Source: Patescibacteria group bacterium
GTDB taxonomy: Bacteria > Patescibacteriota > Microgenomatia > Levybacterales > UBA12049
DNA: 38,377 bases
Reading direction: 5' to 3'
Assembly (NCBI GenBank): GCA_038062115.1
Contig: JBBTXS010000023.1
Location: 1-38,377, forward strand
The notes below the pieces were generated by a model, which was not told the origin of the DNA, ran no database searches, and was given only the letters and a program-made list of their open reading frames with translations. Position numbers and translations under genes: made by a program. Positions within the stretch are counted from its first letter, which is position 1; the number at the start of each line of letters is the position of its first letter. Below, piece by piece: positions 1,915 through 38,298 of this stretch.

Positions 1915-2762
1915 CTTCCTTGCAATAAAAAAGGAAACACTTTTTGCAATATCACTTCTCCCCAAAATAATGCTATAAATGTTCCAATTACCAAAAATGG
2001 TCCAAAAGGTATTGTTGAACCTTTGAATTTTTTCTTCTTTCCCAAAATTAGTATTATAGAAATTACAGCGCCTGTCAAGAAAGCAACATATAAAGCAACT
2101 ACGGTTTTTGGAAAACCCAATATTAGTCCTATTAAAAATGCTAGCTTAACATCTCCAAAGCCCATGCCGCGTCCGCGAGTTGCTAAAAAAATTAAGAGAA
2201 AAAAGAGAAAAGACCCAAGAGCCGAAACGAGGGAAAGTATTAAGTAGTTAGTATTAAGTATTATGTATAAAATCGAAACTATAACTGCAGAATAAGTGAT
2301 TTTATCTGGAATAATTCCGTATTTTAGGTCAGCGAAAAAAACTACAATAAAGCTTGAGAAAATAAAAAGATAGAAAACCAACCCCAACGATTCACCTCCG
2401 AGGAGTCGCTCCGCCAAGTACCGTACGGTACCTGGCTCCGCAACACCTCGGAGGTGGAAAAAGGACTCCTCCGAGGCGAACGATTGCGTAAAAATAATTG
2501 CTGAAACAAACATTATTCCCGTTACAAGCTCCACTAGAGGATAGTAATACGAAAGGGGAACGCGGCAGTAGCGGCATCTAGCTTTTAATGAAATAAATGA
2601 TAAGAGGGGAATTAAGTCGTACCATCTAAGTGTTTTCTTGCAGGATTCACAATAAGATCTTCCGATGAGGAAAGATTCGTCTCTAGGCAGTCTGTCGATT
2701 AAAACATTTAAAAAACTTCCAACACCAACCCCTAGAACAAAGATTAGAAAAACTTCTACCAT
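1911..2762 (-). CDS. pilD: Prepilin peptidase (A24 family)
   Basis: GSFLNVLIDRLP, CxxC pairs, DLIPLLSF, FFADLKYGIIPD, GMGFGDVKL, IPFGPFL. Confidence 0.96.
   Translation of the reverse strand: MVEVFLIFVLGVGVGSFLNVLIDRLPRDESFLIGRSYCESCKKTLRWYDLIPLLSFISLKARCRYCRVPLSYYYPLVELVTGIMFVSAIIFTQSFASEESFFHLRGVAEPGTVRYLAERLLGGESLGLVFYLFIFSSFIVVFFADLKYGIIPDKITYSAVIVSILYIILNTNYLILSLVSALGSFLFFLLIFLATRGRGMGFGDVKLAFLIGLILGFPKTVVALYVAFLTGAVISIILILGKKKKFKGSTIPFGPFLVIGTFIALFWGEVILQKVFPFLLQGR
2391..2480. repeat. Family C palindrome, in-frame in pilD
   Basis: TTCACCTCCGAGGAGTC...ACACCTCGGAGGTG...GACTCCTCCGAGGCGAA; relatives at 17431 and 23647. Confidence 0.85.
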
Positions 2763-2780
2763 GTAAATAGAATAGCATAC

Positions 2781-3323
2781 TTACGGACACGTAGTTGCTC
2801 CTGCTGCGGGCGCGCTTGGAGATTCCTTGAATTTACTACTAGCAGAATCCCAACACCAAACAGCACCCGCGGGCGAATTATATAACTTTCCCCAAACCAC
2901 TGCCGAACAAGTTCCAGGATCACAAGTAGTGGAACGTTGATAATTATAATCTGTTCCATCTGGTTGCATGGGCAATGGATCTAGATCTTTGCTTACTACC
3001 AGATTTTGAAGAGGAGGACTGCTAACGTCTGGATATTTACCCTCATTTGTTGTAAGGTATGCTTTAAGAGCATGGACTATTTGACTCATATCTGTTTTAA
3101 CATTCGCCTCTTTTGCTTGATTAATATTTCTTAAAGGATTAACCGCTACAATAACCGCCATTGCCAAAATACCAATTATTACCATTACTACAAGAAGCTC
3201 AATAAGCGTAAACCCAGCACCACTTAAGTTTTTATTAATAGTATTGTCAAATAAATACATAAATATTTTTTTATTGAATAAGTGGCGCTGGATAAACCCT
3301 AATGTAGACAGTTTTATTTTCAT
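2781..3323 (-). CDS. Type IV pilin with a 28-aa insertion in the leader
   Basis: GAG|FTLIELLVVMVIIGILA..VAVNP; paralogous to 3842..4345. Confidence 0.92.
   Translation of the reverse strand: MKIKLSTLGFIQRHLFNKKIFMYLFDNTINKNLSGAGFTLIELLVVMVIIGILAMAVIVAVNPLRNINQAKEANVKTDMSQIVHALKAYLTTNEGKYPDVSSPPLQNLVVSKDLDPLPMQPDGTDYNYQRSTTCDPGTCSAVVWGKLYNSPAGAVWCWDSASSKFKESPSAPAAGATTCP
3213..3292. mobile_element. 80-bp MITE in a second pilin leader (TAAA/TTTA duplication)
   Basis: TAAA(3209-3212) CCCAGCACCACTTA...TAAGTGGCGCTGGA TAAA(3293-3296). Confidence 0.88.
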
Positions 3324-3381
3324 AACTCTAGTTCACAATTAGTACAACATAATTTATTATGCTTGTCAATATAAATAATAG

Positions 3382-3532
3382 CTGACATTACCCCAGTTTT
3401 GCCTCAAATTACTTATGTCATTGCGATCAGGCGAAGCCTGAGAAGCAATCTCTTTTTTCACAGTGGGATTGCCACGTCGTCCCGCTTCGCGGGACTCCTC
3501 GCAATGACAGGTACAAACTGGGGTAATGTCAG
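3382..3532. mobile_element. 151-bp MITE, 18-bp perfect TIR, 9-bp TSD, enclosing a family A palindrome (3416-3509)
   Basis: CTGACATTACCCCAGTTT...AAACTGGGGTAATGTCAG flanked by AAATAATAG at 3373-3381 and 3533-3541. Confidence 0.92.
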
Positions 3533-3540
3533 AAATAATA

Positions 3541-3640
3541 GTATATATTCAGTTCTTACCAATGAAGCTGTCATTTCGATCAGGCGAAGCCTGAAGCCTG
3601 ATCGCAATGACAATTCCTTTATCAAATCCTGAACGATTAC
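3541..3640. mobile_element. Degenerate MITE enclosing a shortened family A palindrome (3569-3612)
   Basis: Shares TATTCAGTTCTTACCAATGAAGCTGTCATTTCGA with the element at 15090; ends CTGAACGATTAC. Confidence 0.7.
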
Positions 3641-9228: not shown

Positions 9229-9271
9229 CTGTATATCAAGTTAATATTCAAACTCAACTCGTTTTTTTACT

Positions 9272-9456
9272 TGTCAGACAAGAATAGAAATGTCCTATTT
9301 AAGAGACACAATAAGTTACATGGTTTGTCATCCCGACCGTAGCGATAGCGGAGTGGAGGGATCTGTTTGACCTGAGCCTGTTGAGAGAGATTCCTCGACT
9401 CCGTTTCACTGCACTCGGAATGACAAAAAAGCGGACATTTCTATTCTTGTCTGACA
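9272..9456. mobile_element. 185-bp MITE with 24-bp perfect TIR (TGT..ACA), enclosing a family A palindrome (9326-9425)
   Basis: TGTCAGACAAGAATAGAAATGTCC...GGACATTTCTATTCTTGTCTGACA; no clear TSD. Confidence 0.88.
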
Positions 9457-9669
9457 TACCCATTTCATGTTTTAGATGAAAAAAGGAGTAAAATAGAAGA
9501 AATTGAAGTAATTATGGATAATTTACGTGTTTATCCTACACTGCTCCCAAGAAATACTGCAGAAATGTAAGTGGCTGGGAATTAGAAATTGTTCCTGGCA
9601 TAGAACATTTATCCTATCCATGGTAAAATACTATTTGCAAACCGTTACATAATCAAATCTAATTATATT

Positions 9670-11157
9670 GTGATTACAAACAAACTTAAAAAACTATTTT
9701 ATTTTCCAATAGCATCCTATTTCAAATTTTTTGCCCAAATTAGATTAACGCGTTGGAAGCCGAGAATTATTGTGGTAACTGGTTCGAGTGGCAAAACAAC
9801 ATTACTGCATCTTATAGAATCCCAACTTCAAAATAAAGCAAGATACTCTCATTTTGCAAATAGTAGCTATGGAATTCCGTTTGATATTTTGGGATTAAGA
9901 CGCAAGAACCTAACATTAGACGAATGGCCATATCTCTTTTTGGCTGCTCCTTTTAAGGCATTTAAAAAAACTCCAAAGGAAAAACTATATATTGTCGAAG
10001 CAGATTGCGATAGACCTTATGAAGGAAAATTTCTAGCGAATTCATTAAGACCTGAGATTACACTATGGACAAATGTCAGCAGAACCCATACAGCGAATTT
10101 TGATTATCTTGTAAAGAAAAACGAATGTCATTGCGAGGAGGAACGACGAAGCAATCTCACCAGAAAGAGATTGCCACACCAGTCTGCGGACTGGTTCGCA
10201 ATGACAAAGAATAGAAAGAGAAAAACTACCTTTAAGGTTGAAGAGGCGATAGCTCACGAGTTTGGATACTTTTTAGAAGAGACCAAATCTCTTGCTATTA
10301 TTAACAGCGACACTAAGCTAATTAAGCAGCAGTTAACAAGATCAAAAGCATCGGTCAAAAGTGTAACCCAAAAAGGTCTTACCGCCTACAATGTTTTTAA
10401 AGACCATACCGAGTTTAAAATTAATGGGGAAATTTACTCAATTAACGCTTTGCTTCCAAAAGAATCATCTCTTTCAATCCAAATGACCTTAATCCTTCTT
10501 GATTATCTCAAAATTAAACCCGACAACTCATTCTCCAAATTTAGCCTTCCACCTGGAAGGTGTAGTTTGTTTAAGGGAATCAAAAATATTACTATAATAG
10601 ATAGTTCTTATAACGCAACGCCAGATGGGGTTAAGTCTATACTTGAGATGTTTAACCTCTATCCTAGCAATAAGAAATGGCTAGTTTTAGGGGATATGAT
10701 TGAACTTGGCAACGAAGAGCAAGAAGAACATGAGAAATTGGCCGATGTAATTAATTCGATTAAATTAAATAAAATTATATTAGTTGGGCCTAGACTTTCA
10801 AAATATACCTATCCAAGACTAAAGGAACAGGGATTACGTATTTATTCTTCGAGCGATCAGGCGAAGCCTGAGAGTCGAGAAGTCTTATCAGAAAATAGTT
10901 CTCGACAAGACGGGTACCGTACGGTAACCCGTCAAGCTCGAACAATAAGAAATCCTGTAACTGAAAAGTTTATAATGCCGAAAGATGCATTAGATTATTT
11001 AGGCAAAAATTTACAGGGCGGTGAAACAATCTTATTTAAGGGAGCTAGATTTCTAGAGGGTATAATAGAACACTTATTACTTAATAAATATGATATTAAT
11101 AACTTATGCCGAAGAGAATTAGTTTGGCGAGAAAGGCGAAAAAAATGGGGAATTTAA
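9670..11157 (+). CDS. murF: Mur ligase (MurF-like) with two in-frame insertions
   Basis: VTGSSGKTT, PGR, IIDSSYNATP, LVLGDMIELG, ILFKG. Confidence 0.85.
   Translation: MITNKLKKLFYFPIASYFKFFAQIRLTRWKPRIIVVTGSSGKTTLLHLIESQLQNKARYSHFANSSYGIPFDILGLRRKNLTLDEWPYLFLAAPFKAFKKTPKEKLYIVEADCDRPYEGKFLANSLRPEITLWTNVSRTHTANFDYLVKKNECHCEEERRSNLTRKRLPHQSADWFAMTKNRKRKTTFKVEEAIAHEFGYFLEETKSLAIINSDTKLIKQQLTRSKASVKSVTQKGLTAYNVFKDHTEFKINGEIYSINALLPKESSLSIQMTLILLDYLKIKPDNSFSKFSLPPGRCSLFKGIKNITIIDSSYNATPDGVKSILEMFNLYPSNKKWLVLGDMIELGNEEQEEHEKLADVINSIKLNKIILVGPRLSKYTYPRLKEQGLRIYSSSDQAKPESREVLSENSSRQDGYRTVTRQARTIRNPVTEKFIMPKDALDYLGKNLQGGETILFKGARFLEGIIEHLLLNKYDINNLCRRELVWRERRKKWGI
10126..10206. repeat. Family A palindrome (81 bp), in-frame in the Mur ligase
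   Basis: TGTCATTGCGAG..GAAGCAATCTC..GAGATTGCCAC..CGCAATGACA; peptide CHCEEERRSNL...WFAMT. Confidence 0.92.
10842..10948. repeat. Family D palindrome with two nested mini-hairpins, in-frame in the Mur ligase
   Basis: TTATTCTTCGAGCG..AGTCGAGAAGT..AGTTCTCGAC..GCTCGAACAATAA. Confidence 0.9.
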
Positions 11158-11861
11158 ATAAAGCATTAATTATCCATGGTTGGACTTATTCCCTAGAAAA
11201 ATATAAAAAAATTGCAGAAGTTCTTATTCTTAAAGGGCTGCAAACCGACATTCTTAAGGTTCCGGGACTTACAGAAAAAATAGATAAACCTTGGAATCTT
11301 GATGATTATATTGACTGGCTTAAAAATAGAATAGATAAAGAAAAAGGTAAAGTTGTATTGATTGGACATTCGAATGGGGGTCGCATTGCTGGAGCATACG
11401 CAAGCCTGTACCCCCAAAAATTAGCTTATTTAGTTTTAATAGACAGCGCTGGAATTTCGCACGATGAATTCCACGTTAAATTACGACTTTTATTTTTTAC
11501 CACTCTTGCTAAGATTGGCAAGAAAATAGGCTCGTCGGCAATACTTAAAAACTTATTGTATAAATTGACTGGAGAAAGTGATTACAATAATGCTACTGCC
11601 GATATGAAAAAAACTATGACAAATCTTGTTAAATCGGATTTGTCGTTTTCCTTAAATAAAATTAACACTCCAACGTTAATTATATGGGGAGAATTGGATA
11701 AAGTTACTCCCTTAAGTGATGGAAAAATTATGCACAAGTTTATAAAAAACTCAAAATTATATATTGTAAAAGGAGCAAAGCATGCGCCCCATTTTACCCA
11801 CACAGAAGAAGTCGCAGAAATCATATCAAGGAGTATCCTTGCGCAAGGATACTCCTTGTAA
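11145..11861 (+). CDS. Alpha/beta hydrolase
   Basis: IIHGW, GHSNGG nucleophile elbow, WGELDKVTP, H-A-P-H; ATG 11145 preferred over 11106. Confidence 0.9.
   Translation: MGNLNKALIIHGWTYSLEKYKKIAEVLILKGLQTDILKVPGLTEKIDKPWNLDDYIDWLKNRIDKEKGKVVLIGHSNGGRIAGAYASLYPQKLAYLVLIDSAGISHDEFHVKLRLLFFTTLAKIGKKIGSSAILKNLLYKLTGESDYNNATADMKKTMTNLVKSDLSFSLNKINTPTLIIWGELDKVTPLSDGKIMHKFIKNSKLYIVKGAKHAPHFTHTEEVAEIISRSILAQGYSL
11827..11858. repeat. Perfect 32-bp palindrome forming the hydrolase C-terminus
   Basis: CAAGGAGTATCCTTGC|GCAAGGATACTCCTTG. Confidence 0.9.
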
Positions 11862-11866
11862 ATACC

Positions 11867-14245: not shown

Positions 14246-14248
14246 TAT

Positions 14249-14305
14249 TACTGTTTAGTTATATCTATAACGATCCCGTATTGTTAAGATATCTACACAT
14301 CGGTA
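14249..14305 (+). repeat. Family B 57-bp palindrome, left flank of RAYT
   Basis: GTTATATCTATAACGATCCCGTATTGTTAAGATATCTACACATCGGTA. Confidence 0.88.
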
Positions 14306-14326
14306 AAAATGTGGTTCACTAAATAT

Positions 14327-15001
14327 ATGGCGCAACGAAAAACTATACTGGCAACCAATGAAATCTATCATGTTTATAACCGTGGTGTTGAGAAGAGACC
14401 AATATTTTTAATCAAACGAGATTACGCAAGATTTACTGAAACAACAAATTACTATCGTTTTGCAAACTGCCCTATGAGATTTTCATACCTCAAGCTACTT
14501 CCACATGAAGAAAAAGATAATATTTTCAAAAGATTGGAGAGCGAATCAAAAAAACTAGTTGACATCTTTACCTTCTGTTTTATGCCAAACCATATACATT
14601 TTTTATTAAAACAATTAGTTGATAAAGGAATTTCTAAATTTATGGCAAAGATTACAAATGCTTTTAGCCATTATTTTAATACTCGACATGATAGGATTGG
14701 TCATCTTTTTCAAGGGAATTTTGGCGCAGTAAGAATGGAAACTGACGAACAATTAATTCACGTGTCTAGATACATTCATCTTAACCCTGTCTCTTCTTAT
14801 TTAATCGAGATTAAAGATCTTCCAAACTATGAATACTCATCTTATCCTGAGTACATAAACGGTGCTTCTGGCTTTACTAATACAAAAGAGGTGCTTTCTT
14901 ATTTTAAAAATAAAGATGAATACAGAAAGTTTGTTGAAGATCAAACAGACTATGCTCGAAAACTGGAAAATATCAAACACTTAACATTAGAACAAGCCTA
15001 A
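14327..15001 (+). CDS. REP-associated tyrosine transposase (Y1 HUH, IS200/IS605 TnpA superfamily)
   Basis: YHVYNRG, FMPNHIHFLL (HUH), GHLFQG, RYIHLNPV (catalytic Tyr), YSSY; flanked by palindromes; start 14327 or 14309. Confidence 0.9.
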   Translation: MAQRKTILATNEIYHVYNRGVEKRPIFLIKRDYARFTETTNYYRFANCPMRFSYLKLLPHEEKDNIFKRLESESKKLVDIFTFCFMPNHIHFLLKQLVDKGISKFMAKITNAFSHYFNTRHDRIGHLFQGNFGAVRMETDEQLIHVSRYIHLNPVSSYLIEIKDLPNYEYSSYPEYINGASGFTNTKEVLSYFKNKDEYRKFVEDQTDYARKLENIKHLTLEQA

Positions 15002-25320: not shown

Positions 25321-25323
25321 AAT

Positions 25324-25487: not shown

Positions 25488-25492
25488 TTATT

Positions 25493-26725: not shown

Positions 26726-26733
26726 GACGTATT

Positions 26734-26815
26734 TGTCATTGCGAGCGTAGCGAAGCAATCTCTTTGCGATTGGGATTGCTTCGTCTCCGCCAGCTGGCGG
26801 ATCCTCGCAATAACA
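26734..26815. repeat. Family A palindrome between carA and carB with nested TCCGCCAGCTGGCGGA
   Basis: TGTCATTGCGAG...CTCGCAATAACA. Confidence 0.9.
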
Positions 26816-26827
26816 CTTTAATAAAAT

Positions 26828-29800
26828 ATGAAAAATATGAAAAAAGTCCTCGTTTTAGGAAGCGGTGCACTCAAAATAGGAGAGGCTGGAGAATTTGATT
26901 ACTCTGGTTCTCAAGCAATCAAATCCCTAAAAGAGGAGGGGGTAAAAACCGTACTTGTTAATCCTAACATTGCGACCATCCAAACATCGAAATTCCTAAG
27001 CGACACTGTTTATTTCCTTCCAGTTAATAGTTTTTTTGTTGAGAAGATAATTGCAAAAGAAGAACCAGATGGAATTTTGCTGTCTTTTGGAGGGCAAACA
27101 GCTCTTAACTGCGGAATTGATCTGTATAAAAAGGGGGTATTGAAAAAAAATAAAGTTGAGGTTCTAGGTACTCCGATTTTAGGAATTATTTTGACAGAAG
27201 ATAGAAGTAAATTTGCAAATCATCTTCTAAAAATTGGCTTACCTATTCCAAAAAGTGGCGCTGCAAAAACCACAAAGAAAGCTTTAAAAATTGCACAAGA
27301 TATTGGATTTCCGGTAATGATAAGAGTAGGATTTGCGCTTGGAGGACAGGGATCGGGTGTGGCTCACAATAAAGAAGAACTTCAAGAAATCGTTAATCGT
27401 GCTTTATTATTTGCTCCTCAGGTCTTAATTGAAAAGTATCTGCATCATTATAAAGAAATCGAATACGAAGTGGTTCGCGATAAATACGACAACTGTATTA
27501 CTGTTTGCAATATGGAAAACATGGATCCTATGGGAATTCACACTGGTGAATCTATTGTTGTTGCGCCTTCCCAAACGCTTAATAATTTTGAATATCAAAC
27601 TCTTCGGAATGCCGCGATTAAAATTGTAAGAAGCCTTAATATAATAGGGGAGTGCAATGTGCAATTCGCCCTCAATCCAAATCCCAAATCCCAAATCACA
27701 AATTCCAAACAAATTCAAAATTCTAATGACAAGAATCCAAAACGTTTTGAACATTTGGATTTTGAAAATTCGAATTTATTTGGAAATTGGAAATTGGAAA
27801 TTGGAAATTCTCCTTTGGAGTATTACGTCATCGAAGTCAATGCCAGACTTTCCCGCAGTTCTGCTCTAGCCAGCAAAGCAACTGGCTATCCACTTGCCTA
27901 TGTTGCTGCTAAATTAGCAATAGGCGCAAATCTAACAGAAATAAAAAACAAAGTTACCCAGAAAACACAATCTTGTTTTGAGCCGGCTTTAGATTACATA
28001 GTGGTGAAAATTCCAAGGTGGGATATCGAAAAATTCAAAGGCGCTGATGAGAAAATAGGAAGCAGCATGAAGTCGGTCGGTGAAGTTATGGGAATTGGAC
28101 GAAGGTTTGAAGAGGCGTATCAAAAGGCAATAAGAATGCTTGATCTTGATTTTGAAGGCGCAACAAGCAAACTTCTTCTTAAAGACGGAAACTCTATCGC
28201 CAGCCTTCTTGAATTCCCAACTCCCAAACGCATTTTTGCCATAGCAGAGGCAATAAGGCAAAATATCTCAATTGAAAAAATCTATAAGCTTACAGGTATA
28301 GATCCATGGTTTTTGTATAGAATAAAAAATATTGTAGATGAGGAGAAAATGTTAATGTCATCCCGAGGAGTCCCGCTCAGCGGGACGACGAGGGATCCCC
28401 TGAAGTTCAGTATTATCAAATCTCATTTACTAATACTCAAGCGCCTTGGATTTTCCGATAGGAAAATCGGCGAGCTTGTTGGAACTTCAGGACTTGAAAT
28501 AAGAAAACTTCGCAAAAAATACGGCGTCACTCCCTCAATATTTAGCATAGATAGTCTGGCAGGAGAATTTGAAGCAAAAACTAATTATCTTTATCTTACC
28601 TATAACGGCAATCACCACGATATTAAACCTTTAGGCAAAAATGGTGTTGTTGTCTTGGGTTCAGGCCCCTATCGAATTGGATCATCAGTTGAGTTTGACT
28701 GGACAAGCGTTAATACAGCTTTGCGTCTTAAAGATGATAATAAGAAATCAATTATTATTAATTGTAACCCAGAAACTGTCTCAACCGATTATGACATTTC
28801 TGATAGGTTATACTTTGAAGAACTCACATTTGAGCGAATTGCAGATATATACGAGTTTGAAAACCCTTATGGCGTTATTATATCTGTTGGCGGACAAACA
28901 CCTAACAACAGAGCAGAGTCTCTAAAGGCTCAGGGATTTAATGTCTTAGGCACCGATCCAAAAAATATTGATAGGGCAGAGGATAGAAGTAAATTCAGTA
29001 AACTCTTGGATAAACTAAACATTTCTCAGCCCGCATGGGAAAAGGTGTCTACACTCAAACAAGCAATCGCCTTTTGCTCCCGCGTTTCATATCCGGTTCT
29101 AATTAGACCTTCTTTTGTTCTTTCCGGGACCCTAATGCGCATTTGCCACAATCAAGACGATCTAACTCGCATAATCAAAGAAACTGCAATTGTTTCAAAA
29201 GATTATCCCTTAACTATTTCTAAGTTTATAGGGGATGCCAAAGAGATAGAGCTTGATAGTGTTGCTAGCAATGGCAAAATTATTACCTCTGTAATATCTG
29301 AACACATAGAGAACGCAGGCGTTCACTCGGGAGATGCTACTATTGTATTGCCTCCTCAAAAAGTTTATATAGAAACTCAAATCAAAATCGAAGAAATAGG
29401 CAAGAAAATCGCCAAAGAATTAAGAGTTAGTGGCCCATTCAATATACAGTTTTTGGCAAAAGATAACCAAATACAAGTCATCGAAGTAAATCTTCGCGCG
29501 TCCCGAACTTTTCCTTTTATTTCGAAAGTAACAGGAATAGATTTGATAAAATTATCTGTCGATTCATTTTTTAGTCTCAATCACCGTATTTATTCTTCGA
29601 GCGAAGTGCGAAGCACGCAGTCGAGAAGTTCTCGATTCGCTAACGCTCTCTCGAACAATATTAACTTCGTCGCTGTCAAAGCTGCCCAGTTTTCATTTGC
29701 CAGATTAACTGGCGCTGATCCAATATTACACGTTGAGATGGCATCAACTGGCGAGGTTGCGTGTTTTGGAGAAGATTTAGAGGAAGCATTTCTAAAGGCT

Positions 29801-30235
29801 GAGCTTGCGGTTGGAGGAAAAATTCCAAAAAAAGGAATATTTGTAAGCCTTGGCGGAGAAGAAAATAAAATTAAATTCTTGGAATCTGCAATAAGTCTTA
29901 CGAAACTTAATCTTCCAATCTTTGCGACGGAAAAAACAGCAAAATTCTTAAAAAATCATGGTGTAATCACAAAACATCTTTACAAAATCCAGGAAAAAAA
30001 ATCACCAAATGTGCTTGAGTCTTTCCAAAACGGAAAAGTGGATTTGGCTATCAATTTAGTCGAGACTCAACTCCAAAAAGACGAAGGAGACCATTATACC
30101 ATCAGACGAGCGGCAATCGACCACAATATTCCTCTTTTTACCAACAGACAAAAAGCGCAGCTTTTTGTAAGAGCAATTACTTCGCTAAAGCTTGAGGATC
30201 TAAAAATTAAACCCTGGAGCGAATATATTTCTTAA
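26828..30235 (+). CDS. carB: Carbamoyl-phosphate synthase large subunit
   Basis: GEAGEFDYSGSQA, GIHTGES, IEVNARLSRSSALASKATGYP, GSSVEFDW, GVHSGDA, MGS domain. Confidence 0.98.
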   Translation: MKNMKKVLVLGSGALKIGEAGEFDYSGSQAIKSLKEEGVKTVLVNPNIATIQTSKFLSDTVYFLPVNSFFVEKIIAKEEPDGILLSFGGQTALNCGIDLYKKGVLKKNKVEVLGTPILGIILTEDRSKFANHLLKIGLPIPKSGAAKTTKKALKIAQDIGFPVMIRVGFALGGQGSGVAHNKEELQEIVNRALLFAPQVLIEKYLHHYKEIEYEVVRDKYDNCITVCNMENMDPMGIHTGESIVVAPSQTLNNFEYQTLRNAAIKIVRSLNIIGECNVQFALNPNPKSQITNSKQIQNSNDKNPKRFEHLDFENSNLFGNWKLEIGNSPLEYYVIEVNARLSRSSALASKATGYPLAYVAAKLAIGANLTEIKNKVTQKTQSCFEPALDYIVVKIPRWDIEKFKGADEKIGSSMKSVGEVMGIGRRFEEAYQKAIRMLDLDFEGATSKLLLKDGNSIASLLEFPTPKRIFAIAEAIRQNISIEKIYKLTGIDPWFLYRIKNIVDEEKMLMSSRGVPLSGTTRDPLKFSIIKSHLLILKRLGFSDRKIGELVGTSGLEIRKLRKKYGVTPSIFSIDSLAGEFEAKTNYLYLTYNGNHHDIKPLGKNGVVVLGSGPYRIGSSVEFDWTSVNTALRLKDDNKKSIIINCNPETVSTDYDISDRLYFEELTFERIADIYEFENPYGVIISVGGQTPNNRAESLKAQGFNVLGTDPKNIDRAEDRSKFSKLLDKLNISQPAWEKVSTLKQAIAFCSRVSYPVLIRPSFVLSGTLMRICHNQDDLTRIIKETAIVSKDYPLTISKFIGDAKEIELDSVASNGKIITSVISEHIENAGVHSGDATIVLPPQKVYIETQIKIEEIGKKIAKELRVSGPFNIQFLAKDNQIQVIEVNLRASRTFPFISKVTGIDLIKLSVDSFFSLNHRIYSSSEVRSTQSRSSRFANALSNNINFVAVKAAQFSFARLTGADPILHVEMASTGEVACFGEDLEEAFLKAELAVGGKIPKKGIFVSLGGEENKIKFLESAISLTKLNLPIFATEKTAKFLKNHGVITKHLYKIQEKKSPNVLESFQNGKVDLAINLVETQLQKDEGDHYTIRRAAIDHNIPLFTNRQKAQLFVRAITSLKLEDLKIKPWSEYIS
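27679..27809. repeat. Heptamer-armed inverted-repeat element, in-frame in carB
   Basis: AAATCCC AAATCCC AAATCAC AAATTCC...(GGAAATT)x4. Confidence 0.88.
28356..28398. repeat. Half family A element, in-frame in carB
   Basis: TGTCATCCCGAGGAGTCCCGCTCAGCGGGACGACGAGGGATCC; peptide MSSRGVPLSGTTRDP. Confidence 0.8.
29591..29660. repeat. Family D palindrome, in-frame in carB
   Basis: TATTCTTCGAGCG..AGTCGAGAAGTTCTCGA..TCGAACAATA. Confidence 0.88.
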
Positions 30236-30349
30236 TTTCTAATTACTAATTCCTAATTTATAAACAATGACTAATGTTAAAATGCCTAATGCCTAAAGGC
30301 TTTAATTATTGGAATTTAATTAGTCATTAGATATTAAAAATTAGAAACT
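30233..30349. repeat. Degenerate heptamer-armed element between carB and pyrC
   Basis: TAATTTC TAATTAC TAATTCC...ATTAGTCATTAGATATTAAAAATTAGAAA. Confidence 0.65.
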
Positions 30350-30351
30350 TT

Positions 30352-31476
30352 ATGCTTACCTTACATGGTCTTATTGATCCCCATGTTCATTTACGAGATC
30401 CTGGGCAAACGCAGAAAGAGGATTTTTATACTGGAACTGTAGCCGCTTTGGCTGGCGGATATACAACAATTCTGGACATGCCAAATAACAAAGTGCCGAT
30501 AACGACTCTTGCAAGACTTGAAGAAAAAATAGCTATTGCAAAACAAAAAATCGTCTGCGATGTAGGATTTTATTTTGGATCAACAGGGGATAATCTTGGC
30601 GAGTTTGAGAAGGTAAAGAATAAAGTAATGGGTCTTAAGCTGTACCTTAACGAAACTACCGGAAATTTAATAATTGATAAAAAGTTGTTGGAAAAGATAT
30701 TTATTAAATGGTCCCAAAGTATGTCACTACGTAGCGGCATACTTTCGACAAAAAATGTAAAACCGATACTTGTGCACGCCGAAGGAAAAAGAGTAGAGCA
30801 TGTAATAAATGTAGTCAAAAGTATAAAAATACCGACACATTTTTGTCACATAAGCCTTGCTTCTGAACTTAAGATAATCATAAAAGCAAAAGAAGAAAAC
30901 TTACCAGTAACCTGCGGCGTTACCCCTCACCACTTATTTTTAACAGAAAATGACATTAAAACACTTGGTCCTTTTGGCAAAATGAAACCAGCACTTAGAA
31001 CAAAAAAGGATGTAGCGTTTCTTTGGAATAATATTAATTTAATAGATGTTATTGAATCTGATCACGCACCACACACAATAAGAGAAAAAAATGTTCAAAC
31101 CCGGTTTGAACGAGGTAGACAAACCCAGTTTGTATCACCTTTTGGCGTTCCGGGGCTTGAAACAACTTTACCTTTACTTCTCACCGCAGTTTCCCAAAAA
31201 CGACTAACAATTGAGGATGTAATACGACTTTGCTTTGAAAACCCATCGCGCATTTTTTGCTCCAGCAAAAATTGTGATGCCACAATTGAGGTCGATTTAT
31301 ATAAATCATATACTATAGAAAATAAAAATTTATTTACCAAATGTCACTGGTCACCGTTTGACGGATGGAAAGTGAAAGGAAAAGTACAACGAGTTTGGAT
31401 TCGGGGAGTAAAAGTTTTCGATGATGGAAAAGTTTTAATAAAACCAGGATTCGGAAAAGTTCTTACCGAAGCGTAA
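30352..31476 (+). CDS. pyrC: Dihydroorotase
   Basis: LIDPHVHLRDPG, LDMPN, VHAE, CHIS, SDHAPH, GVPGLET. Confidence 0.95.
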   Translation: MLTLHGLIDPHVHLRDPGQTQKEDFYTGTVAALAGGYTTILDMPNNKVPITTLARLEEKIAIAKQKIVCDVGFYFGSTGDNLGEFEKVKNKVMGLKLYLNETTGNLIIDKKLLEKIFIKWSQSMSLRSGILSTKNVKPILVHAEGKRVEHVINVVKSIKIPTHFCHISLASELKIIIKAKEENLPVTCGVTPHHLFLTENDIKTLGPFGKMKPALRTKKDVAFLWNNINLIDVIESDHAPHTIREKNVQTRFERGRQTQFVSPFGVPGLETTLPLLLTAVSQKRLTIEDVIRLCFENPSRIFCSSKNCDATIEVDLYKSYTIENKNLFTKCHWSPFDGWKVKGKVQRVWIRGVKVFDDGKVLIKPGFGKVLTEA

Positions 31477-31520
31477 ATATGTTAACAATACGGGATTGTT
31501 ACAGATATAACACTCCTGTA
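31464..31520 (-). repeat. Family B 57-bp palindrome overlapping the pyrC stop
   Basis: TACCGAAGCGTAAATATGTTAACAATACGGGATTGTTACAGATATAACACTCCTGTA. Confidence 0.9.
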
Positions 31521-31524
31521 AATT

Positions 31525-32457
31525 TCATTTATTTCCACTATGAAACGCCTCATGGACCTCACGTAATTGCTTATTTGTGACGTGGGTGTAGATTTGAGTG
31601 GTAGATATATTCTTGTGTCCCAACATTTCTTGCACGCTTCTAATATCCGCACCGTTTGATAACAAATCTGTTGCGAATGAATGTCTTATAGTATGGACTG
31701 TGGCATCCACTGGCAAACGAGACAAACGAACATACTTTTTAACAATTCTCTCAACGCTTCTTGCCGTTAGCCTCATTTTCTCGCCATTATTTTCCTCAAC
31801 TACTCGTCCAGAATAGCGAATAAACAATGGCTTAAATTTATCTTTTCGCACATTTTGATACTTATTTAACCACATAGAAGCTCTTTCCGAAATAAAAACA
31901 ATTCTAGCTCTTCCTCCTTTTCCAATTACCCCAAACTCACGGCGCTCAAGATTTATGCTTTCCCGATTTAGACTGACTAGTTCCGAAACCCTAAGCCCCG
32001 TAGAAAACAATAGCTCTAAAATTGCCCTGTCTCTTAAACCTTCTTCTTTGGAAATATCTACACAATTTACTAATCTATCAATTTGCTCCTTTTCTAAAAA
32101 TTTTAAAGACCTGCTTTCTGTTTTTGGTAAATCAATCTTTGAAGGTTCTAAGGTTTTATGATCATTTTTTATTAAAAACCTCAAAAAAGATCTAAGCGCT
32201 ATAACATAATAATTTTGAGTAACCCTTTTTAATGTTAAACCTTTAGCATCAACTCTATTTGCCAAATAAACTCTGTATTTTCTTACAATTTGTAAGTCAA
32301 GATCAGAAATTGTTTTGTTAGGAAGGGACGCGGCAAACCATTCTGCAAATACTTTAAGATAATGTCTATAGTCTCGAATAGTAAGTTTTGAACAGTTTTT
32401 TTCTATTTCGAGGTATTCTAAAAATTGATCAATTAAAGCAGGCAAATTAGTATTCAT
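31525..32457 (-). CDS. XerC/XerD-family tyrosine recombinase
   Basis: RDRAILELLFSTGLRVSEL, GKGGRAR, HTIRHSFAT, QEMLGH, TTQIYTHV; ATG 32457. Confidence 0.95.
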   Translation of the reverse strand: MNTNLPALIDQFLEYLEIEKNCSKLTIRDYRHYLKVFAEWFAASLPNKTISDLDLQIVRKYRVYLANRVDAKGLTLKRVTQNYYVIALRSFLRFLIKNDHKTLEPSKIDLPKTESRSLKFLEKEQIDRLVNCVDISKEEGLRDRAILELLFSTGLRVSELVSLNRESINLERREFGVIGKGGRARIVFISERASMWLNKYQNVRKDKFKPLFIRYSGRVVEENNGEKMRLTARSVERIVKKYVRLSRLPVDATVHTIRHSFATDLLSNGADIRSVQEMLGHKNISTTQIYTHVTNKQLREVHEAFHSGNK

Positions 32458-32549
32458 AAAATCTTTTTTGCGATGCAAACGTTGCAAAATGGATAAACTA
32501 AAATATTATAACATATTTATTTTGCGACGCGCTAGCGTTGTAAAATGAC

Positions 32550-32670
32550 ACGAGTTTCGCACATTTGTCATTCCGTGCTTGACACGGAATCCATACAAAT
32601 AATTATTGGTATAGATTCCCGCTTTCGCGGGAATGACATGTAGGTATTCTACTAGAACTGCGAAGCTCGT
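32550..32670. mobile_element. 121-bp MITE with 12-bp TIR enclosing a family A palindrome (32566-32638)
   Basis: ACGAGTTTCGCA...TGCGAAGCTCGT; flanks AAATGAC / AAATGAA. Confidence 0.75.
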
Positions 32671-32704
32671 AAATGAATCAAGATTATGCGATGCAGGAAA
32701 CAAC

Positions 32705-34068: not shown

Positions 34069-34947
34069 TTATGTTCTCTTAAAGGCAAAAAGTATGAAGA
34101 CCAAGAACACTAATACGCCAACCCATATATACTCCCACATTATACTCTTAAATAATTTTTTTTCGAGCCAAACATGAGAAAGCCCAACGATAATATAGAA
34201 AAATCCAGTTAAAAAAAGAGCAATTACTGTTGGCAATATTGGCCAAAACCACAAGGCAGCAGCGACTTCAACTAGACAAATGCCAAGAGACAATATCCAC
34301 AAAGAGTTGGAAAAGAATTTACTCCCTAAACTGTACGTCCAAAGCGATTGAAGTATAAGAGGAAAAGAAAAAGCGAAAACTAGAATTAATGTGAAAAACA
34401 CGTTTAGATGCATTGAAAACACCACATTTGTAAGAAAAAAATAGGATAAAAGAGTAATTATAAAAGATACCGTGCGGGCTGAGGACAAAAGCGCGATAGT
34501 TCTAATCGAGGAAACAACAAAAATATTTACGCTTAAGAGTAATGAGTAAAACCCAAGAGCGTATAGTGAGGTCATTGTGAGTCGAGTTAAAAAACTAGCT
34601 GGAACTAAAAAATAAAATAATCCAAAAGAAAGACTATAAAAAAATGGAGCAATAAGTATTTGAGGAGAAAAATTATTTTTTAAATCTTTACCCACCGACA
34701 AAAAGAGCAAAATTATTGTAAAAAAAGAAAGAAAAAAAGCAATGTATAACCCAGATTTCCCAAGCATTTGTTCTGCCAAAAATAATAATGAAGACGAGCT
34801 AATAACACTTATTATAAATTTCTGCCTTTTACTAATACCAAAAAAAATCTTTTTAATCAGGCGAAGCCACGTCTGACGTGGCGAATGCCTGAGAAGCCTG
34901 ATTAAAATATGCTTTAAAGATAACCTTCTATTCTTATTGCTGAACAT
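34069..34947 (-). CDS. Multi-pass membrane protein of unknown function
   Basis: Many hydrophobic segments; overlaps the yebC stop; palindrome at 34851-34907 in the N-terminus. Confidence 0.8.
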   Translation of the reverse strand: MFSNKNRRLSLKHILIRLLRHSPRQTWLRLIKKIFFGISKRQKFIISVISSSSLLFLAEQMLGKSGLYIAFFLSFFTIILLFLSVGKDLKNNFSPQILIAPFFYSLSFGLFYFLVPASFLTRLTMTSLYALGFYSLLLSVNIFVVSSIRTIALLSSARTVSFIITLLSYFFLTNVVFSMHLNVFFTLILVFAFSFPLILQSLWTYSLGSKFFSNSLWILSLGICLVEVAAALWFWPILPTVIALFLTGFFYIIVGLSHVWLEKKLFKSIMWEYIWVGVLVFLVFILFAFKRT

Positions 34948-36477: not shown

Positions 36478-37266
36478 ACTATCTTTTCCAATCACTATAA
36501 CTATATCTGCTATTGCTTTTTTGTCTAATTTATTTAGTTTAAATCCTAGAATTTTACTTATTTTTTCAACTGTATAAGTTTTTTTACCAAAATACGAAAT
36601 TGTGGATATATTTTCATTGCTATCCGATGACGCAATTATAACAACATTTCCTCCCATATTAGTAATAAGTCTACCTAGTCTATTTCCAAGTCCAGTTACG
36701 TTGATCCCGTTGACAATTTTTATGCTAACATTTTCTTTTTCTATAATTTCGTCGCTAAAAAGTGGTGGAATAATTTTATCAAGACTTGAGACATTCTCTG
36801 ATGTAGAAATTTTTTTATCGTAAATATAATTTATTGGAAGTGTCTTTGAAAATAAGTAAAGTCTCAAAATATCTACAATGGTAAGATTGGTTCTTATGCT
36901 CTTGTAATTTAAAATGAACTTGAGCATCAAATCTGACACTTTAAAATCTTTTATAGTTAGAGAGCTCTTCGCTTCCCCATCGATTGGAATTTCCAAAAAT
37001 CTATTTATATTTAAACTTTTTGTGTCTCCTTCTATTTTTAATACCGATATAGATTGCGATTTTGGAGAAAAAGATATAATCTCCAAATCTTTGCCGTTTG
37101 TTACACTAATCGTGAAACGTGTTTTAGTATCGAATCTACTCTTGCTAACAATTAAAACTCCCTTAAAAATTAGAGATATCAGAATAACAATAAAAACAAA
37201 AGCAAAAAATTTGATAGCAATTTTGGTGTTATTTAATCCACCATCGAGTTTTTTTTTAGCTCTCAT
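36457..37266 (-). CDS. Membrane-anchored protein with a LytR C-terminal domain
   Basis: N-terminal TM; IKIVNG...GLGNRL, ADIVIVIGKD. Confidence 0.8.
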   Translation of the reverse strand: MRAKKKLDGGLNNTKIAIKFFAFVFIVILISLIFKGVLIVSKSRFDTKTRFTISVTNGKDLEIISFSPKSQSISVLKIEGDTKSLNINRFLEIPIDGEAKSSLTIKDFKVSDLMLKFILNYKSIRTNLTIVDILRLYLFSKTLPINYIYDKKISTSENVSSLDKIIPPLFSDEIIEKENVSIKIVNGINVTGLGNRLGRLITNMGGNVVIIASSDSNENISTISYFGKKTYTVEKISKILGFKLNKLDKKAIADIVIVIGKDSLAKLNF

Positions 37267-37272
37267 AAAGAG

Positions 37273-37413
37273 TTAGTAGCCGGGTTTCTTTTTAGAGATT
37301 ATCTCGGGCATAGAAATGATTGGGCTGCCAAGCCCTACTGAGGAAACATTTTTGATCGGCCCTTTTTTCTTCTTTTTCTTTTCGCCCTTAAAGTATCCAC
37401 CAAAACTTCCCAT
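37273..37413 (-). CDS. Small basic hypothetical protein (46 aa)
   Basis: MGSFGGYFKGEKKKKKKGPIKNVSSVGLGSPIISMPEIISKKKPGY; GAGGAG/GAGGT upstream; fills the gap between co-oriented genes. Confidence 0.55.
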   Translation of the reverse strand: MGSFGGYFKGEKKKKKKGPIKNVSSVGLGSPIISMPEIISKKKPGY

Positions 37414-37458
37414 AACCTCATCTCCTCGCATAATACTACCAAATCCCGAGGAAACAAA

Positions 37459-38298
37459 TCAAGAATGCTGAAGATCTCCCAAAAATTGCCTAAGTTGATT
37501 TGGCAATTCGCTCTCAAAGTAAATCAGCTTACCAGTTTTAGGATGATAAAAAGAAATTTTTGAAGCGTGCAAAAAGATACGGGGTAATATTTTTCTGTCG
37601 TTTCTTGCAGTTTTACGCCCGGCATACAAAGGGTCAGCAAATATAGAGTGATTCAAATATTTAAGATGCACTCTTATCTGATGCGTTCTACCAGTCTCGG
37701 GATAAAGCTCTAATAGCGTCAGGCTTTCATTTTTTATGTCACCTGCTCCTCTGTCATTCTGAGCGAAGCGAAGAATCTCATTAGATCCTTCGTTCTGCAT
37801 AGCAGAACTCAGGATGACACTGCGCAAAACTTTATACCTCGTTACCGCTTCTCTTCCTCCTGCTAGCACCCCAAACCTCTTCCTATTCCACGGAAGCCGT
37901 CCAACCGGAACATTAATTTCTCCTTCTTTAAACTCCACTTTCCCATGCACCAAAGCAATATAGGTTTTTTTTACTCTTCTTTCTTTAAATTGCTTTTGCA
38001 AATTTTCGAAAGATTGCGGATTTTTGGCAACCAAAAGAATTCCCGAAGTCTCCTTATCTAATCTATGAACTATTCCTGCTCTTTTATAAAAATCCGTCTC
38101 CTTCGTGTCATGCTGAACTCGTTTCAGCATCTCGTTTGAACAGGGATCCCGAAACAAGCTCGGGATGACAAGATGAGCCTCCACCCACTCCTGCACCGTC
38201 TTCTCCCCTACTGTTGTATCCGATCGATTAACTACAATTCCCGCTGGCTTATCCAAAACCAAAATCTCACTATCTTCAAAAATTATCCTTGGTTCCAT
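37459..38298 (-). CDS. RluA/RluD-family pseudouridine synthase with two insertions
   Basis: LDKPAG, VHRLDKETSG, TGRTHQIRVH, LHASKI. Confidence 0.95.
   Translation of the reverse strand: MEPRIIFEDSEILVLDKPAGIVVNRSDTTVGEKTVQEWVEAHLVIPSLFRDPCSNEMLKRVQHDTKETDFYKRAGIVHRLDKETSGILLVAKNPQSFENLQKQFKERRVKKTYIALVHGKVEFKEGEINVPVGRLPWNRKRFGVLAGGREAVTRYKVLRSVILSSAMQNEGSNEILRFAQNDRGAGDIKNESLTLLELYPETGRTHQIRVHLKYLNHSIFADPLYAGRKTARNDRKILPRIFLHASKISFYHPKTGKLIYFESELPNQLRQFLGDLQHS
37752..37819. repeat. Family A palindrome, in-frame in the RluA-family gene
   Basis: TGTCATTCTGAG...CTCAGGATGACA; peptide VILSSAMQNEGSNEILRFAQND. Confidence 0.9.
38106..38170. repeat. Family A palindrome, in-frame in the RluA-family gene
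   Basis: TGTCATGCTGAAC...CGGGATGACA; close match to intergenic 17268-17332. Confidence 0.92.

Follow-up and report, generated by a model that had tools for sequence, protein, structure and literature searches.

In-frame insertion of palindromic repeats in housekeeping genes of a small groundwater bacterium

Palindromic elements inserted in frame were confirmed in housekeeping genes of a small groundwater bacterium (~1 Mb genome; assembly 85% complete) that is probably affiliated with the Microgenomates group of the Patescibacteria. Within the window, the whole 38,377-nt stretch of DNA that was analysed, 22 candidate in-gene palindromes were examined and their coordinates, folding energies and copy numbers tabulated, with gene identities assigned by Pfam and folding scores (z) expressed relative to coding windows of equal length. 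Inserts were considered robust when they were missing from orthologs and either formed a strong hairpin or repeated elsewhere in the genome. On this basis 17 of the 22 candidates are robust in-frame inserts, each missing from 10–29 orthologs, with strong hairpins ranging in z from -3.4 to -7.7. A preliminary description had placed the number at 20 or more; the five weaker candidates are two PyrC segments, which are weak palindromes, and two pilin-leader hairpins and one membrane-protein hairpin, which are palindromic and remain candidates only as insertions.

Genome-wide, a strict scan for terminal repeats recovered 86 elements compared to none in a shuffled genome, and 76 perfect 9-bp stems occurred inside ORFs compared to 23–30 in codon-shuffled controls, values that exclude chance, with the in-gene counts being rough because genome-wide ORF calls are crude. 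Self-comparison of the genome identified 195 repeat intervals (1.7% of the genome), and the commonest 12-mer occurred 76 times. The terminal motif of the main family, family A, was present in 102 copies, compared to 0–17 in 60 genomes of the same family, and was wholly missing from 37 of the 60. Many phyla, and also viral contigs, nonetheless contain the family-A architecture, and the expansion seen here reads as a lineage-specific burst.

In the family-A design, a 12-bp outer stem is combined with an 8-bp inner stem and a pair of variable hairpin arms. An alignment of 56 copies drawn from many phyla shows this design, the inner stem not having been imposed by the search. In the alignment the arms vary in sequence and keep the hairpin, and alone they fold just modestly better than shuffles. 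Families A, B, D and E all have many dispersed copies with common ends, and small hairpins recur as modules in different families (one 14 times, another 8 times). No Rfam family matches the main element, and no target-site duplication was established for the elements. As had been described, the main families also occur between genes (coordinates without strand). Family-A elements are centred in a larger palindrome (3416–3513 in 3375–3539) within an intergenic cluster (3364–3640) that ends in a short family-A copy (3569–3611), nested in the middle of a palindrome with 29-nt arms (9271–9457), and nested in another palindrome (15089–15216). A full element (17532–17623) has a family-C palindrome directly upstream (17434–17513), and further copies lie between hppA and gyrA (19704–19790), between carA and carB (26729–26819), and directly upstream of pyrB (24262–24351), where the first ATG of the pyrB ORF falls within the terminal repeat. 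The intergenic set is completed by a copy of the family-A subfamily of the second RluA insert (17267–17334; an 83% identical pair), a composite palindrome of a family-A subfamily (32547–32678), and a family-E AT-rich palindrome with a family-D double hairpin at its centre (25316–25489).

The strongest hairpin (z -7.7) belongs to PilD, in which a family-C insert, a GC-rich nested palindrome (2388–2476, minus strand; eight other genome places), lies between the two peptidase A24 domains and is present in none of 24 orthologs. The Mur ligase carries a full family-A element of 34 residues (10120–10221, plus strand; z -3.8; 14 other places), common to none of 16 orthologs, one of which holds a different insert at the site, and, from family B, an element that contains two mini-hairpins nested within it (10825–10959, plus strand; z -4.3; 16 other places); 13 of the 16 orthologs have an empty second site, and three hold other inserts there. 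Family B also supplied the insert in DegT (12464–12558, plus strand; z -3.5; missing from the 22 orthologs compared), that in FemAB (13667–13759, plus strand; z -3.8; present in none of 29 orthologs), both bridged by contigs from runs X4, X5 and X6, and the element at the junction of the two (13076–13172, plus strand; z -6.8), bridged by contigs from X4, X6 and X7. The junction element takes the place of the DegT stop codon, resulting in a single 792-residue DegT-FemAB ORF; in all 12 relatives the two are separate ORFs with a stop, mostly in different frames, a comparison indicating that a family-B copy fused DegT to FemAB by removing the stop codon.

In GyrB, a family-D double mini-hairpin (15854–15895, plus strand; z -5.9; 10 other places) has a 90% identical intergenic copy at 25409–25447; eight of ten orthologs lack any insert and two carry other segments. 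The family-A insert of GyrA, about 36 residues (20411–20521, plus strand; z -6.2; 14 other places), is carried by none of 29 orthologs and falls in a loop of variable length, for which the Bacillus subtilis GyrA structure 4ddq_A has ~4 residues compared to 47 in the query. The FolD insert, from family C (23654–23710, plus strand; z -6.3; two other genome matches), lies between the two FolD domains in a region of variable length among the nine orthologs compared. RluA holds a family-A element (37732–37824, minus strand; z -4.5; 11 other places) and a family-A subfamily element (38104–38173, minus strand; z -4.9; 23 other places), both missing from the 29 orthologs compared; the second site is variable, and both are also occupied by other elements in orthologs. 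In other genera, different palindromes occupy these loops, at both RluA sites as well as in CarB and at the second Mur site. Hairpins with insertion as a candidate only occur in the leaders of two type IV pilin genes, with 15-bp arms in pilin 1 (1290–1380, minus strand; z -3.1), for which ortholog alignment is poor across the long leader, and a similar hairpin in pilin 3 (3208–3300, minus strand; z -2.5), and in the N-terminal part of a 292-residue membrane protein (34846–34908, minus strand; z -4.5), where a nested hairpin with one other genome match aligns ambiguously to just three orthologs. Insert-bearing genes are full length and are conserved on either side of every insert. PilB, PilT, PilC, HppA, PyrB, Xer and YebC have no insert of at least 5 residues relative to orthologs (one ortholog in the case of HppA), as initially described.

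The three CarA inserts are missing from orthologs (20 compared). Insert 1 (25892–25945, plus strand; z -6.9) is a clean 48-nt block in otherwise colinear sequence, missing from five close relatives (74–77% identity) and also from human CPS1. Insert 2 (26021–26062, plus strand; z -4.1; one other genome match) is common to four of the five closest relatives, where it is conserved as protein, and is an older palindrome. Insert 3 is a 92-nt family-A element (26195–26290, plus strand; z -5.5; 22 other places) at a polymorphic site: among six sequences (this genome and five relatives) one is empty, three hold one 92-nt family-A element in which the variable arms differ at constant total length, one holds another family-A subfamily and one a family-C element. 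The clean block and the polymorphism suggest recent gain. Across 21 sequences, query included, the alignment columns of the catalytic Cys, His and Glu do not vary, in agreement, for CarA, with the earlier claim that catalytic motifs are intact. All three inserts coincide with pLDDT <50 in the predicted structure (residues 152–162 for insert 1), which is a weak sign of exposure since the model was built from a shallow set of 21 sequences (mean pLDDT 71.9) and is also of low confidence at conserved residues 45–96.

CarB likewise carries three inserts missing from orthologs (29 compared). Insert 1 is a family-E AT-rich palindrome of about 44 residues (27677–27812, plus strand; 20 other genome places) with 44-nt arms that are 75% complementary and a z of only -0.8, and the human CPS1 alignment breaks here, at query residues 285–330. 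Insert 2 is half a family-A element (28353–28405, plus strand; z -5.9; bridged by X6 and X7 contigs) and insert 3 belongs to family B (29585–29650, plus strand; z -3.4; bridged by one X6 contig). At least 10 extra residues are found at site 1 in five of the 29 orthologs and at site 2 in three, and three of these segments start and end like family-A copies. Solved distant homologs lack the segments of CarA, CarB and GyrA. The weak palindromes of PyrC (30721–30762, plus strand, z -0.2; 31096–31140, plus strand, z -2.0) are real extra segments relative to most of 12 orthologs; for the second, which has one other genome match, nine orthologs have no segment and three have others. The low-copy inserts, namely the second of CarA, both of PyrC, and those of the membrane protein and FolD, with only 1–4 other genome copies each, may be copies that have decayed or may have been invented locally.

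In the conserved enzymes, all 19 inserts are in frame and free of stops, in line with the initial statement that no gene is frameshifted, and translations place family A in all three frames. Intergenic family-A copies (n = 59), by comparison, are open in only ~32% of frames (1.9 of 6), and their lengths are spread over the three residues modulo 3 (19, 16 and 24 copies). The insert peptides are hydrophilic (GRAVY -0.9, compared to -0.17 for the host proteins) and enriched in Arg (2.9x) and Ser (2.5x), and look like exposed segments. Inserts make up 464 of 5609 residues across 11 core proteins, such that about one residue in 12 of these proteins appears to derive from repeat DNA, if the inserts are translated. 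The preservation of frame and absence of stop codons point to inserts that are translated and tolerated. The preliminary description proposed a multi-family invasion generating new protein loops; several families are indeed found in frame, and the new loops are what we infer from them.

A RAYT-like Y1 (HUH) transposase gene (14309–15001, plus strand; Pfam Y1_Tnp, 43 bits), the only Y1 transposase match in the genome, had been put forward as the candidate mobiliser. Its protein scores 48.5 bits against NCBIfam REP_Tyr_transpos, below the cut-off of 80. The gene is flanked by copies of a REP family 13–14 nt upstream (14258–14298) and 13 nt downstream (15014–15061), with further copies directly past gene ends (17338–17385, 24109–24166 and 31464–31523); the ~12 copies are all extragenic and distinct from families A–E. 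Of the 60 same-family genomes, 28 have a Y1 gene, and 14 of these contain the family-A motif, as do 9 of the 32 that lack one; a genome with no Y1 match holds 17 copies of the motif, and another, with nine Y1 genes, holds one. Y1 presence and the motif do not clearly track one another. With its own extragenic REP family and no clear tracking with family A, the RAYT is unsupported as mobiliser of the in-frame families. No transposase flanked by the family-A terminal repeat was found in the 85%-complete assembly.

The explanation we regard as likely is a burst, in this lineage, of several families of short (40–136 nt), non-autonomous, nested palindromic repeats, of which, inside genes, only in-frame copies survived selection. 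The elements land both between and inside genes. They would move in the form of DNA, perhaps as cruciforms or as hairpins of a single strand, and selection would keep those in-gene copies with a length that is a multiple of three and no stop in the host frame. Persistence would be expected in variable surface loops, inter-domain linkers, gene ends and cleaved leaders, where the ribosome would read the inserts as hydrophilic, Arg/Ser-rich peptide segments. Older in-gene copies would drift from the family consensus, one copy deleted a stop codon to give the DegT-FemAB fusion, and different elements in other lineages occupy the same permissive or preferred sites.

It is improbable that the elements are instead kept for a function as an RNA or DNA signal (transcript stability, pausing, recombination or DNA uptake): the conserved architecture of the main family across phyla and arms that vary in sequence yet remain hairpins would fit such a role, but Rfam offers no match, the arms alone fold little better than shuffles, a copy number of 102 here against none in 37 of 60 related genomes is typical of selfish bursts, and the use of three frames in unrelated enzymes speaks against a shared role in coding or regulation. 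About equally unlikely is that some or many of the palindromes arose in place, for example by template switching during replication, which produces perfect hairpins, or by gene conversion from other copies, with no mobile insertion. This would suit the near-unique inserts (one match each for CarA insert 2, the second PyrC segment and the membrane protein; two for FolD), the recurrent hairpin modules and the orthologous 92-nt elements with differing arms, but families A, B, D and E are dispersed in many copies with common ends, CarA insert 1 is a clean block, and a single CarA site that is empty or holds three unrelated elements among close relatives fits better with insertion.

That the inserts go untranslated, either excised from the mRNA or bypassed by ribosomes as in T4 gene 60 and Magnusiomyces capitatus, is very unlikely. 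Bypassed hairpin-forming mobile blocks in essential genes are a precedent, in the part of the source consulted (PMC5009743), and the inserts here are strong hairpins; the mitochondrial blocks described there break the frame, however, and a filter for frame and stops on the in-gene copies set against unfiltered intergenic copies would be expected solely under ribosomal read-through. Among relatives, moreover, CarA insert 2 is conserved as protein. An assembly or binning artefact, in which repeats were wrongly spliced into genes, has a negligible probability. Repeats attract mis-assembly and the summed contig depth spikes at repeats in all four runs, but nine inserts (DegT, the junction, FemAB, all three of CarA, the second and third of CarB and the first of PyrC) are spanned without a differing letter by contigs that come from two independent studies and extend 31 nt or more into either flank, every insert keeps the reading frame open, and relatives from other samples hold related inserts at the same sites.

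The burst of in-frame palindromes resembles several known systems. As in REP/REPIN systems with a RAYT, a lone Y1 gene has on either side a copy of one short palindromic repeat whose remaining copies sit directly past gene ends, and family A, with its two inverted hairpin halves, recalls the REP doublet. RAYTs generally follow a single-copy rule, unlike the up to nine such Y1 genes in relatives; further, the REP family here lies outside genes and differs from the families found in frame, the protein falls short of the curated RAYT cut-off, and no link was found between Y1 genes and family A. Like MITEs, as far as the sources consulted describe them, the elements are non-autonomous with terminal inverted repeats and can form translational fusions within ORFs, in-frame examples being intragenic ERIC, Coxiella QMITE1 and Anabaena MITEs (PMC10969869, PMC5896051). 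The elements here differ in that no parental insertion sequence sharing their ends was found in this genome and no target-site duplication was established, and in their frequent insertion in genes, which is occasional in MITEs. The Magnusiomyces capitatus mitochondrial blocks (81 positions in 12 of 15 genes, in the part of PMC5009743 consulted) and the T4 gene 60 gap share mobile, hairpin-forming blocks at high density in essential genes; there the frame is broken and ribosomes skip, whereas here the kept, stop-free frame points to read-through.

There is also a likeness to the Rickettsia palindromic elements (RPEs), as had been proposed: here too the proteins gain hydrophilic segments, which in this genome are missing from orthologs and solved homologs. 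In the part of the source consulted, R. conorii has 44 RPE copies, nearly half of them, from three of ten families, within ORFs, and the added peptide segments are judged compatible with the fold (PMC10969869). Both systems comprise several short palindromic families in frame in unrelated housekeeping genes of a small genome. The elements here are shorter (40–136 nt compared to ~150 bp), nested in one another and probably unrelated in sequence; family A uses three reading frames, and so yields no single conserved peptide, and its architecture spans many phyla. By this comparison, the phenomenon is RPE-like, with several families, at a far higher local density (17–22 in 38 kb) and in a phylum other than that of Rickettsia.

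The extra in-gene palindromes reported in the preliminary description were largely borne out when orthologs of each host gene, fetched from same-family or same-order genomes, were aligned to the window proteins. The GyrA segment occurred in none of 29 orthologs (loop length there, 0 to ~50 residues) and eight of ten GyrB orthologs were without any insert. CarB inserts 1–3 were each missing in most of 29 orthologs and CarA inserts 1–3 in most of 20, with CarA insert 1 missing in all 20. The segments were likewise missing for Mur inserts 1 and 2 (both in most of 16 orthologs), PyrC segments 1 and 2 (most of 12), DegT insert 1 (most of 22), the FemAB insert (29 of 29), RluA insert 1 (nearly all of 29), and the PilD insert (24 orthologs); the FolD insert and RluA insert 2 lie in regions of variable length in all relatives. 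Distant homologs, a comparison proposed at the outset, were taken from solved structures and also lacked the segments: human CPS1 has gaps at all three CarA inserts and at CarB inserts 2 and 3, with the alignment breaking across CarB insert 1, and Bacillus subtilis GyrA has ~4 residues at the insert compared to 47 in the query. Most inserts fold far better than same-length coding windows, and most have further genomic copies. The description did not extend as well to PyrC segments 1 and 2, weak cases with extra segments but poor hairpins, nor to the two pilin leaders and the membrane protein, where a hairpin was seen and insertion was not established by ortholog alignment. No insert of ≥5 residues was found in PilB, PilT, PilC, HppA, PyrB, Xer, or YebC, all previously described as insert-free.

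These proteins are part of a gene set for which Pfam agrees with the earlier naming: four pilins, PilD, PilC, PilT, PilB, the Mur ligase, the DegT-FemAB open reading frame (ORF), a Y1 transposase, GyrB, HppA, GyrA, FolD, PyrB, CarA, CarB, PyrC, Xer, YebC, and RluA. The window is an entire contig (C23) of a 1.04 Mb genome (36 contigs, 85% complete, ~37% G+C), and its DNA was present in groundwater metagenome runs. The pyrB-carA-carB-pyrC block (24346–31476) is patchy across the order (CarB in 42 of 121 genomes searched) and was not adjacent to gyrA in the relatives fetched. At 3–905 (−), a gene reaching past the contig end encodes a pilin-like protein with an N-terminal methylation motif, a Pro-Thr linker, and tandem ~47-residue repeats, the DNA of which is 92–96% identical. 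In the pilin hairpins (1290–1380 and 3208–3300), a 15-bp stem pairs the codons of the conserved cleavage-site motif with an upstream inverted copy, and these could be a regulatory or recombination structure rather than an insert. The pyrB ORF has its first ATG (24346) within a family-A terminal repeat (element at 24264–24351), a few codons ahead of the starts of its orthologs; the element may thus have added seven codons to the ORF, or may merely adjoin the real start.

The inserts are not an assembly artefact, a possibility that had been flagged for checking. Contigs of four metagenome runs (X4–X7) from two studies were aligned to window positions 11800–31600; X5–X7 come from a different study than the one that probably yielded the assembly. 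Single contigs from both studies crossed inserts without a differing letter. DegT insert 1, the junction, and FemAB were bridged by X4 (11828–14195) and X6 (12450–14220), the FemAB insert and the RAYT-like gene by X5 (13264–15030), all of CarA by X4 (25458–26760), CarB insert 2 by X6 (28303–29034) and X7 (28151–28530), and CarB insert 3 with PyrC segment 1 by X6 (29280–30968), each with 0 differing letters. Contig depth, summed over four groundwater runs, rose 10- to 50-fold at repeat positions (15766–16426, 17088–17748, 25020–25680, 26342–27002, and 27664–28324), which indicates that the same repeats are abundant in other community members.

The termini of one palindromic family supply the most frequent 12-mers of the genome (top 12-mer, 76 occurrences). 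A strict scan for two 14-nt ends matching as inverted repeats 30–140 nt apart returned 86 elements in the genome and 0 in a shuffled genome, and comparison of the window to the genome marked all intergenic copies and several in-gene copies. Five in-frame families were distinguished. The main one, family A, has 12-nt terminal inverted repeats, a length of 60–110 nt, several subfamilies, and a build of two stems (outer, 12 bp; inner, 8 bp) with two mini-hairpin arms. Family B spans ~70–135 nt; family C is GC-rich (in PilD, in FolD, and at 17434–17513); family D is a double mini-hairpin (in GyrB and at 25409–25447); and family E is AT-rich with 37–44-nt arms. A separate REP family surrounds the Y1 gene. 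Small GC-rich hairpins are reused as modules across families (one 14 times, another eight times), many with a GAA loop closed by a C-G pair, a type that is unusually stable in single-stranded DNA. Isolated variable arms were only modestly stronger as hairpins than shuffles, and no covariation is claimed. Family-A copies are nested centrally in larger palindromes at 3375–3539, 9272–9456, and 15090–15214, and elements occupy the exact centres of these and of a further palindrome at 25324–25487; given this nesting, elements may land preferentially at hairpin tips. All three frames are used in reading family A (Mur, GyrA/CarA, and CarB), as first described, and two in reading family B, for which the census (26 termini, six complete elements) is too small for frame statistics. 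Scanning the window against Rfam (E up to 1) yielded only two chance-level matches and no known RNA family. No name for family A was found in Rfam or in the searched open-access literature, where its terminal motif as a string matched unrelated primers only, and the open-access main texts searched held nothing relevant on palindromic or in-frame elements in the Candidate Phyla Radiation/Patescibacteria.

Judging from reading frames, the inserts are probably translated. Each of the 19 inserts in conserved enzymes preserves the reading frame and is free of stops, in keeping with the original view that no gene is frameshifted, whereas intergenic family-A copies are open in just ~1/3 of frames and have lengths in all three classes modulo 3, such that by our arithmetic only about one in ten random insertions would survive. 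A filter on frame and stops makes sense only if ribosomes read through the inserts, and it argues against their being spliced or bypassed, processes that tolerate frame-breaking blocks, as an account of bypassing describes (PMC5009743). Translational bypass blocks of the byps or gene 60 type, which disrupt the frame or carry stops and are skipped, are unlikely on this basis. Strict family-A copies in crudely called ORFs had no length bias modulo 3 (10, 10, and 7), but element borders and ORF calls are too rough for this test and reliance was therefore placed on the ortholog alignments. The inserted residues (464, or 8.3% of eleven proteins) are hydrophilic, with Arg and Ser abundant. All three CarA inserts fall at segments with pLDDT <50 in an AlphaFold model of the protein, as does the conserved stretch 45–96, the latter because the alignment is shallow. 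The columns of the Cys, His, and Glu that we take to be the CarA catalytic residues are invariant, consistent for this enzyme with the earlier statement that catalytic motifs are intact.

The history of individual sites was explored by DNA comparison with five metagenome contigs encoding CarA (74–77% identity). Insert 1 is a clean 48-nt block in this genome only, and comparison of filled and empty sites gave no unambiguous target-site duplication. Insert 2 is common to four of the five relatives at ~90% identity and is thus older and inherited. At the site of insert 3, one relative is empty, this genome and two relatives have a 92-nt family-A backbone, the fourth relative has another family-A subfamily, and the fifth has a family-C element. 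The three 92-nt copies have exactly the same length with different mini-hairpins in different arms, and the identity of the element between relatives is equal in direct and reverse-complement orientation (72 and 73 of 92), which fits a direct and an inverted arrangement alike. The CarA of one close relative (metagenome contig L382) has two further inserts that this genome lacks: one, of nine residues, follows the conserved HIQS motif, and the other, of 14 residues, is within the amidotransferase domain. More distant genera have other palindromes in the same loops, as is the case in other genera for the second Mur site and both RluA sites. Extra segments of ≥10 residues occur at CarB site 1 in five of 29 orthologs and at CarB site 2 in three of 29, and three of the CarB extra segments in orthologs start and end like family-A copies. 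The reused positions are either preferred targets or the few places that tolerate an insert.

A family-B element also accounts for the DegT-FemAB fusion ORF (11867–14245). In all 12 relatives that have both genes, DegT and FemAB are separate ORFs and DegT has its stop codon, with FemAB in another frame than DegT in 11 of the 12. Here, the element replaces the DegT tail and stop, resulting in a single 792-residue ORF, and the translation showed no in-frame start codon from the element up to where FemAB conservation begins.

A stringent self-comparison of the genome identified 195 repeat intervals (1.7% of the genome), 38 of them deep inside ORFs (30 of 763 long ORFs). As this comparison recovers just four of the ~20 in-gene inserts of the window, in-gene copies are more diverged and are probably several times more numerous than it shows. 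ORFs contain 76 perfect 9-bp stems with GC, compared to 23–30 in codon-shuffled controls; eight of the 76 fall in the window, which seems to have ~3-fold the genome-wide density of such stems. The terminal motif of family A was counted 102 times here, compared to ≤17 times in each of 60 same-family genomes and none in 37 of the 60, constituting a family-A burst in this lineage. An exact search for both 12-nt ends 50–80 nt apart, in a set with one genome per species, matched at least 120 stretches, with ~0.1 chance matches expected by our arithmetic; the phyla among the matches listed were Bacteroidota, Chloroflexota, Planctomycetota, cyanobacteria, Proteobacteria, Nitrospirae, Verrucomicrobia, Firmicutes, Omnitrophota, and Patescibacteria. 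The same search of IMG/VR returned 40 viral-contig stretches. In 56 aligned copies, the inner 8-bp stem was conserved though not imposed by the search, and the arms between the stems were variable hairpins. Among the matches listed, long open frames hold just ten of 126 such copies, suggesting that frequent in-gene residence is special to this lineage.

The RAYT-like Y1 (HUH) transposase gene in the window (14309–15001, +), earlier proposed as a candidate mobiliser of the inserts, gained no support in that role. It is the single Y1 gene found in the genome; its protein matches Pfam Y1_Tnp above the cut-off, has REP_Tyr_transpos as its best and only NCBIfam match (48.5 bits, below the cut-off of 80), and has its nearest named homologs in Candidatus Levybacteria and Daviesbacteria. 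Together with the groundwater habitat, this one protein suggests that the organism is a Microgenomates-type member of the Patescibacteria. REP copies lie 13–14 nt from both gene ends, and the REP family (~12 genomic copies, five in the window) is entirely extragenic, mostly just past stop codons. This is the classical picture of a REP/RAYT system, a Y1 gene flanked by its own extragenic repeats, and it applies to the REP family and not to families A–E, to which nothing links the gene. One family-A copy is situated 116 nt downstream of the Y1 gene. Among 60 relatives, the family-A motif was present in 14 of 28 with a Y1 gene compared to nine of 32 without, and Y1 gene counts (0–9) did not clearly track motif counts. 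RAYTs are habitually single-copy, whereas relatives G018, G143, G006, G007, G008, and G011 have 5–9 Y1 genes of the same type per genome. The other transposase genes are few (RVT_1, 1; DDE_Tnp_1, 1; rve, 2–4; TnpB and IS110, 0), and in this 85%-complete assembly the DDE_Tnp_1, rve, RVT_1, and Y1 genes are not bounded by family-A ends in their 600-nt flanks, and no parent insertion sequence was recognised among them. With no transposase gene tied to families A–E, no mobiliser is assigned; because of the hairpin-in-hairpin build, an enzyme acting on folded single strands is plausible, though speculative. A joint reading, which we regard as possible if rather doubtful, would have family A as an unnamed pan-bacterial mobile hairpin/cruciform element, with two freely exchangeable mini-hairpin arms, that spreads between phyla, possibly on viruses. 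Under the same tentative reading, family A would be moved by an enzyme acting on folded DNA, would repeatedly target the same codon-level sites, and would be a major source here of new protein loops and the gene fusion, at a density unreported in cellular genomes.

To our knowledge, in-frame palindromic invasion of housekeeping genes has been regarded as a peculiarity almost unique to Rickettsia, and the same phenomenon is now present in an unrelated, uncultured phylum. The inserts offer a natural experiment on where gyrase, carbamoyl-phosphate synthase, Mur ligase, and other enzymes can accommodate 10–45 extra residues. They also call for caution, as repeats may have shaped the protein lengths, domain calls, and ‘fusions’ seen in such genomes, and they point to a widespread element family whose ends do not bound the transposase genes of this genome.

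In terms of known systems, family A resembles MITEs in its 12-nt terminal inverted repeats and differs in that no parent insertion sequence with the same ends was found in this genome. Going by the portions of a review that treat them, the nearest known parallel is provided by the Rickettsia palindromic elements (RPEs), which take in-frame insertion to an unusually high frequency; whether other prokaryotes do likewise is left open in those portions (PMC10969869). The initial interpretation of an RPE-like, multi-family, in-frame invasion accordingly stands, apart from the role given to the RAYT. As in Rickettsia, repeated palindromic elements have dispersed genomic copies and, in several families, lie in frame in unrelated housekeeping genes whose orthologs lack them. 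Sequence homology of families A–E to RPE-1 to RPE-10 is unlikely, judging by the different phylum and lengths. The single conserved peptide in a fixed frame expected of an RPE-like family is absent here, family A being read in three frames and family B in two. Further differences are the phylum, the element build, the nesting, the higher local density, the reuse of sites with different elements across genera, a resulting gene fusion, and a site that is empty, filled, or replaced depending on the close relative.
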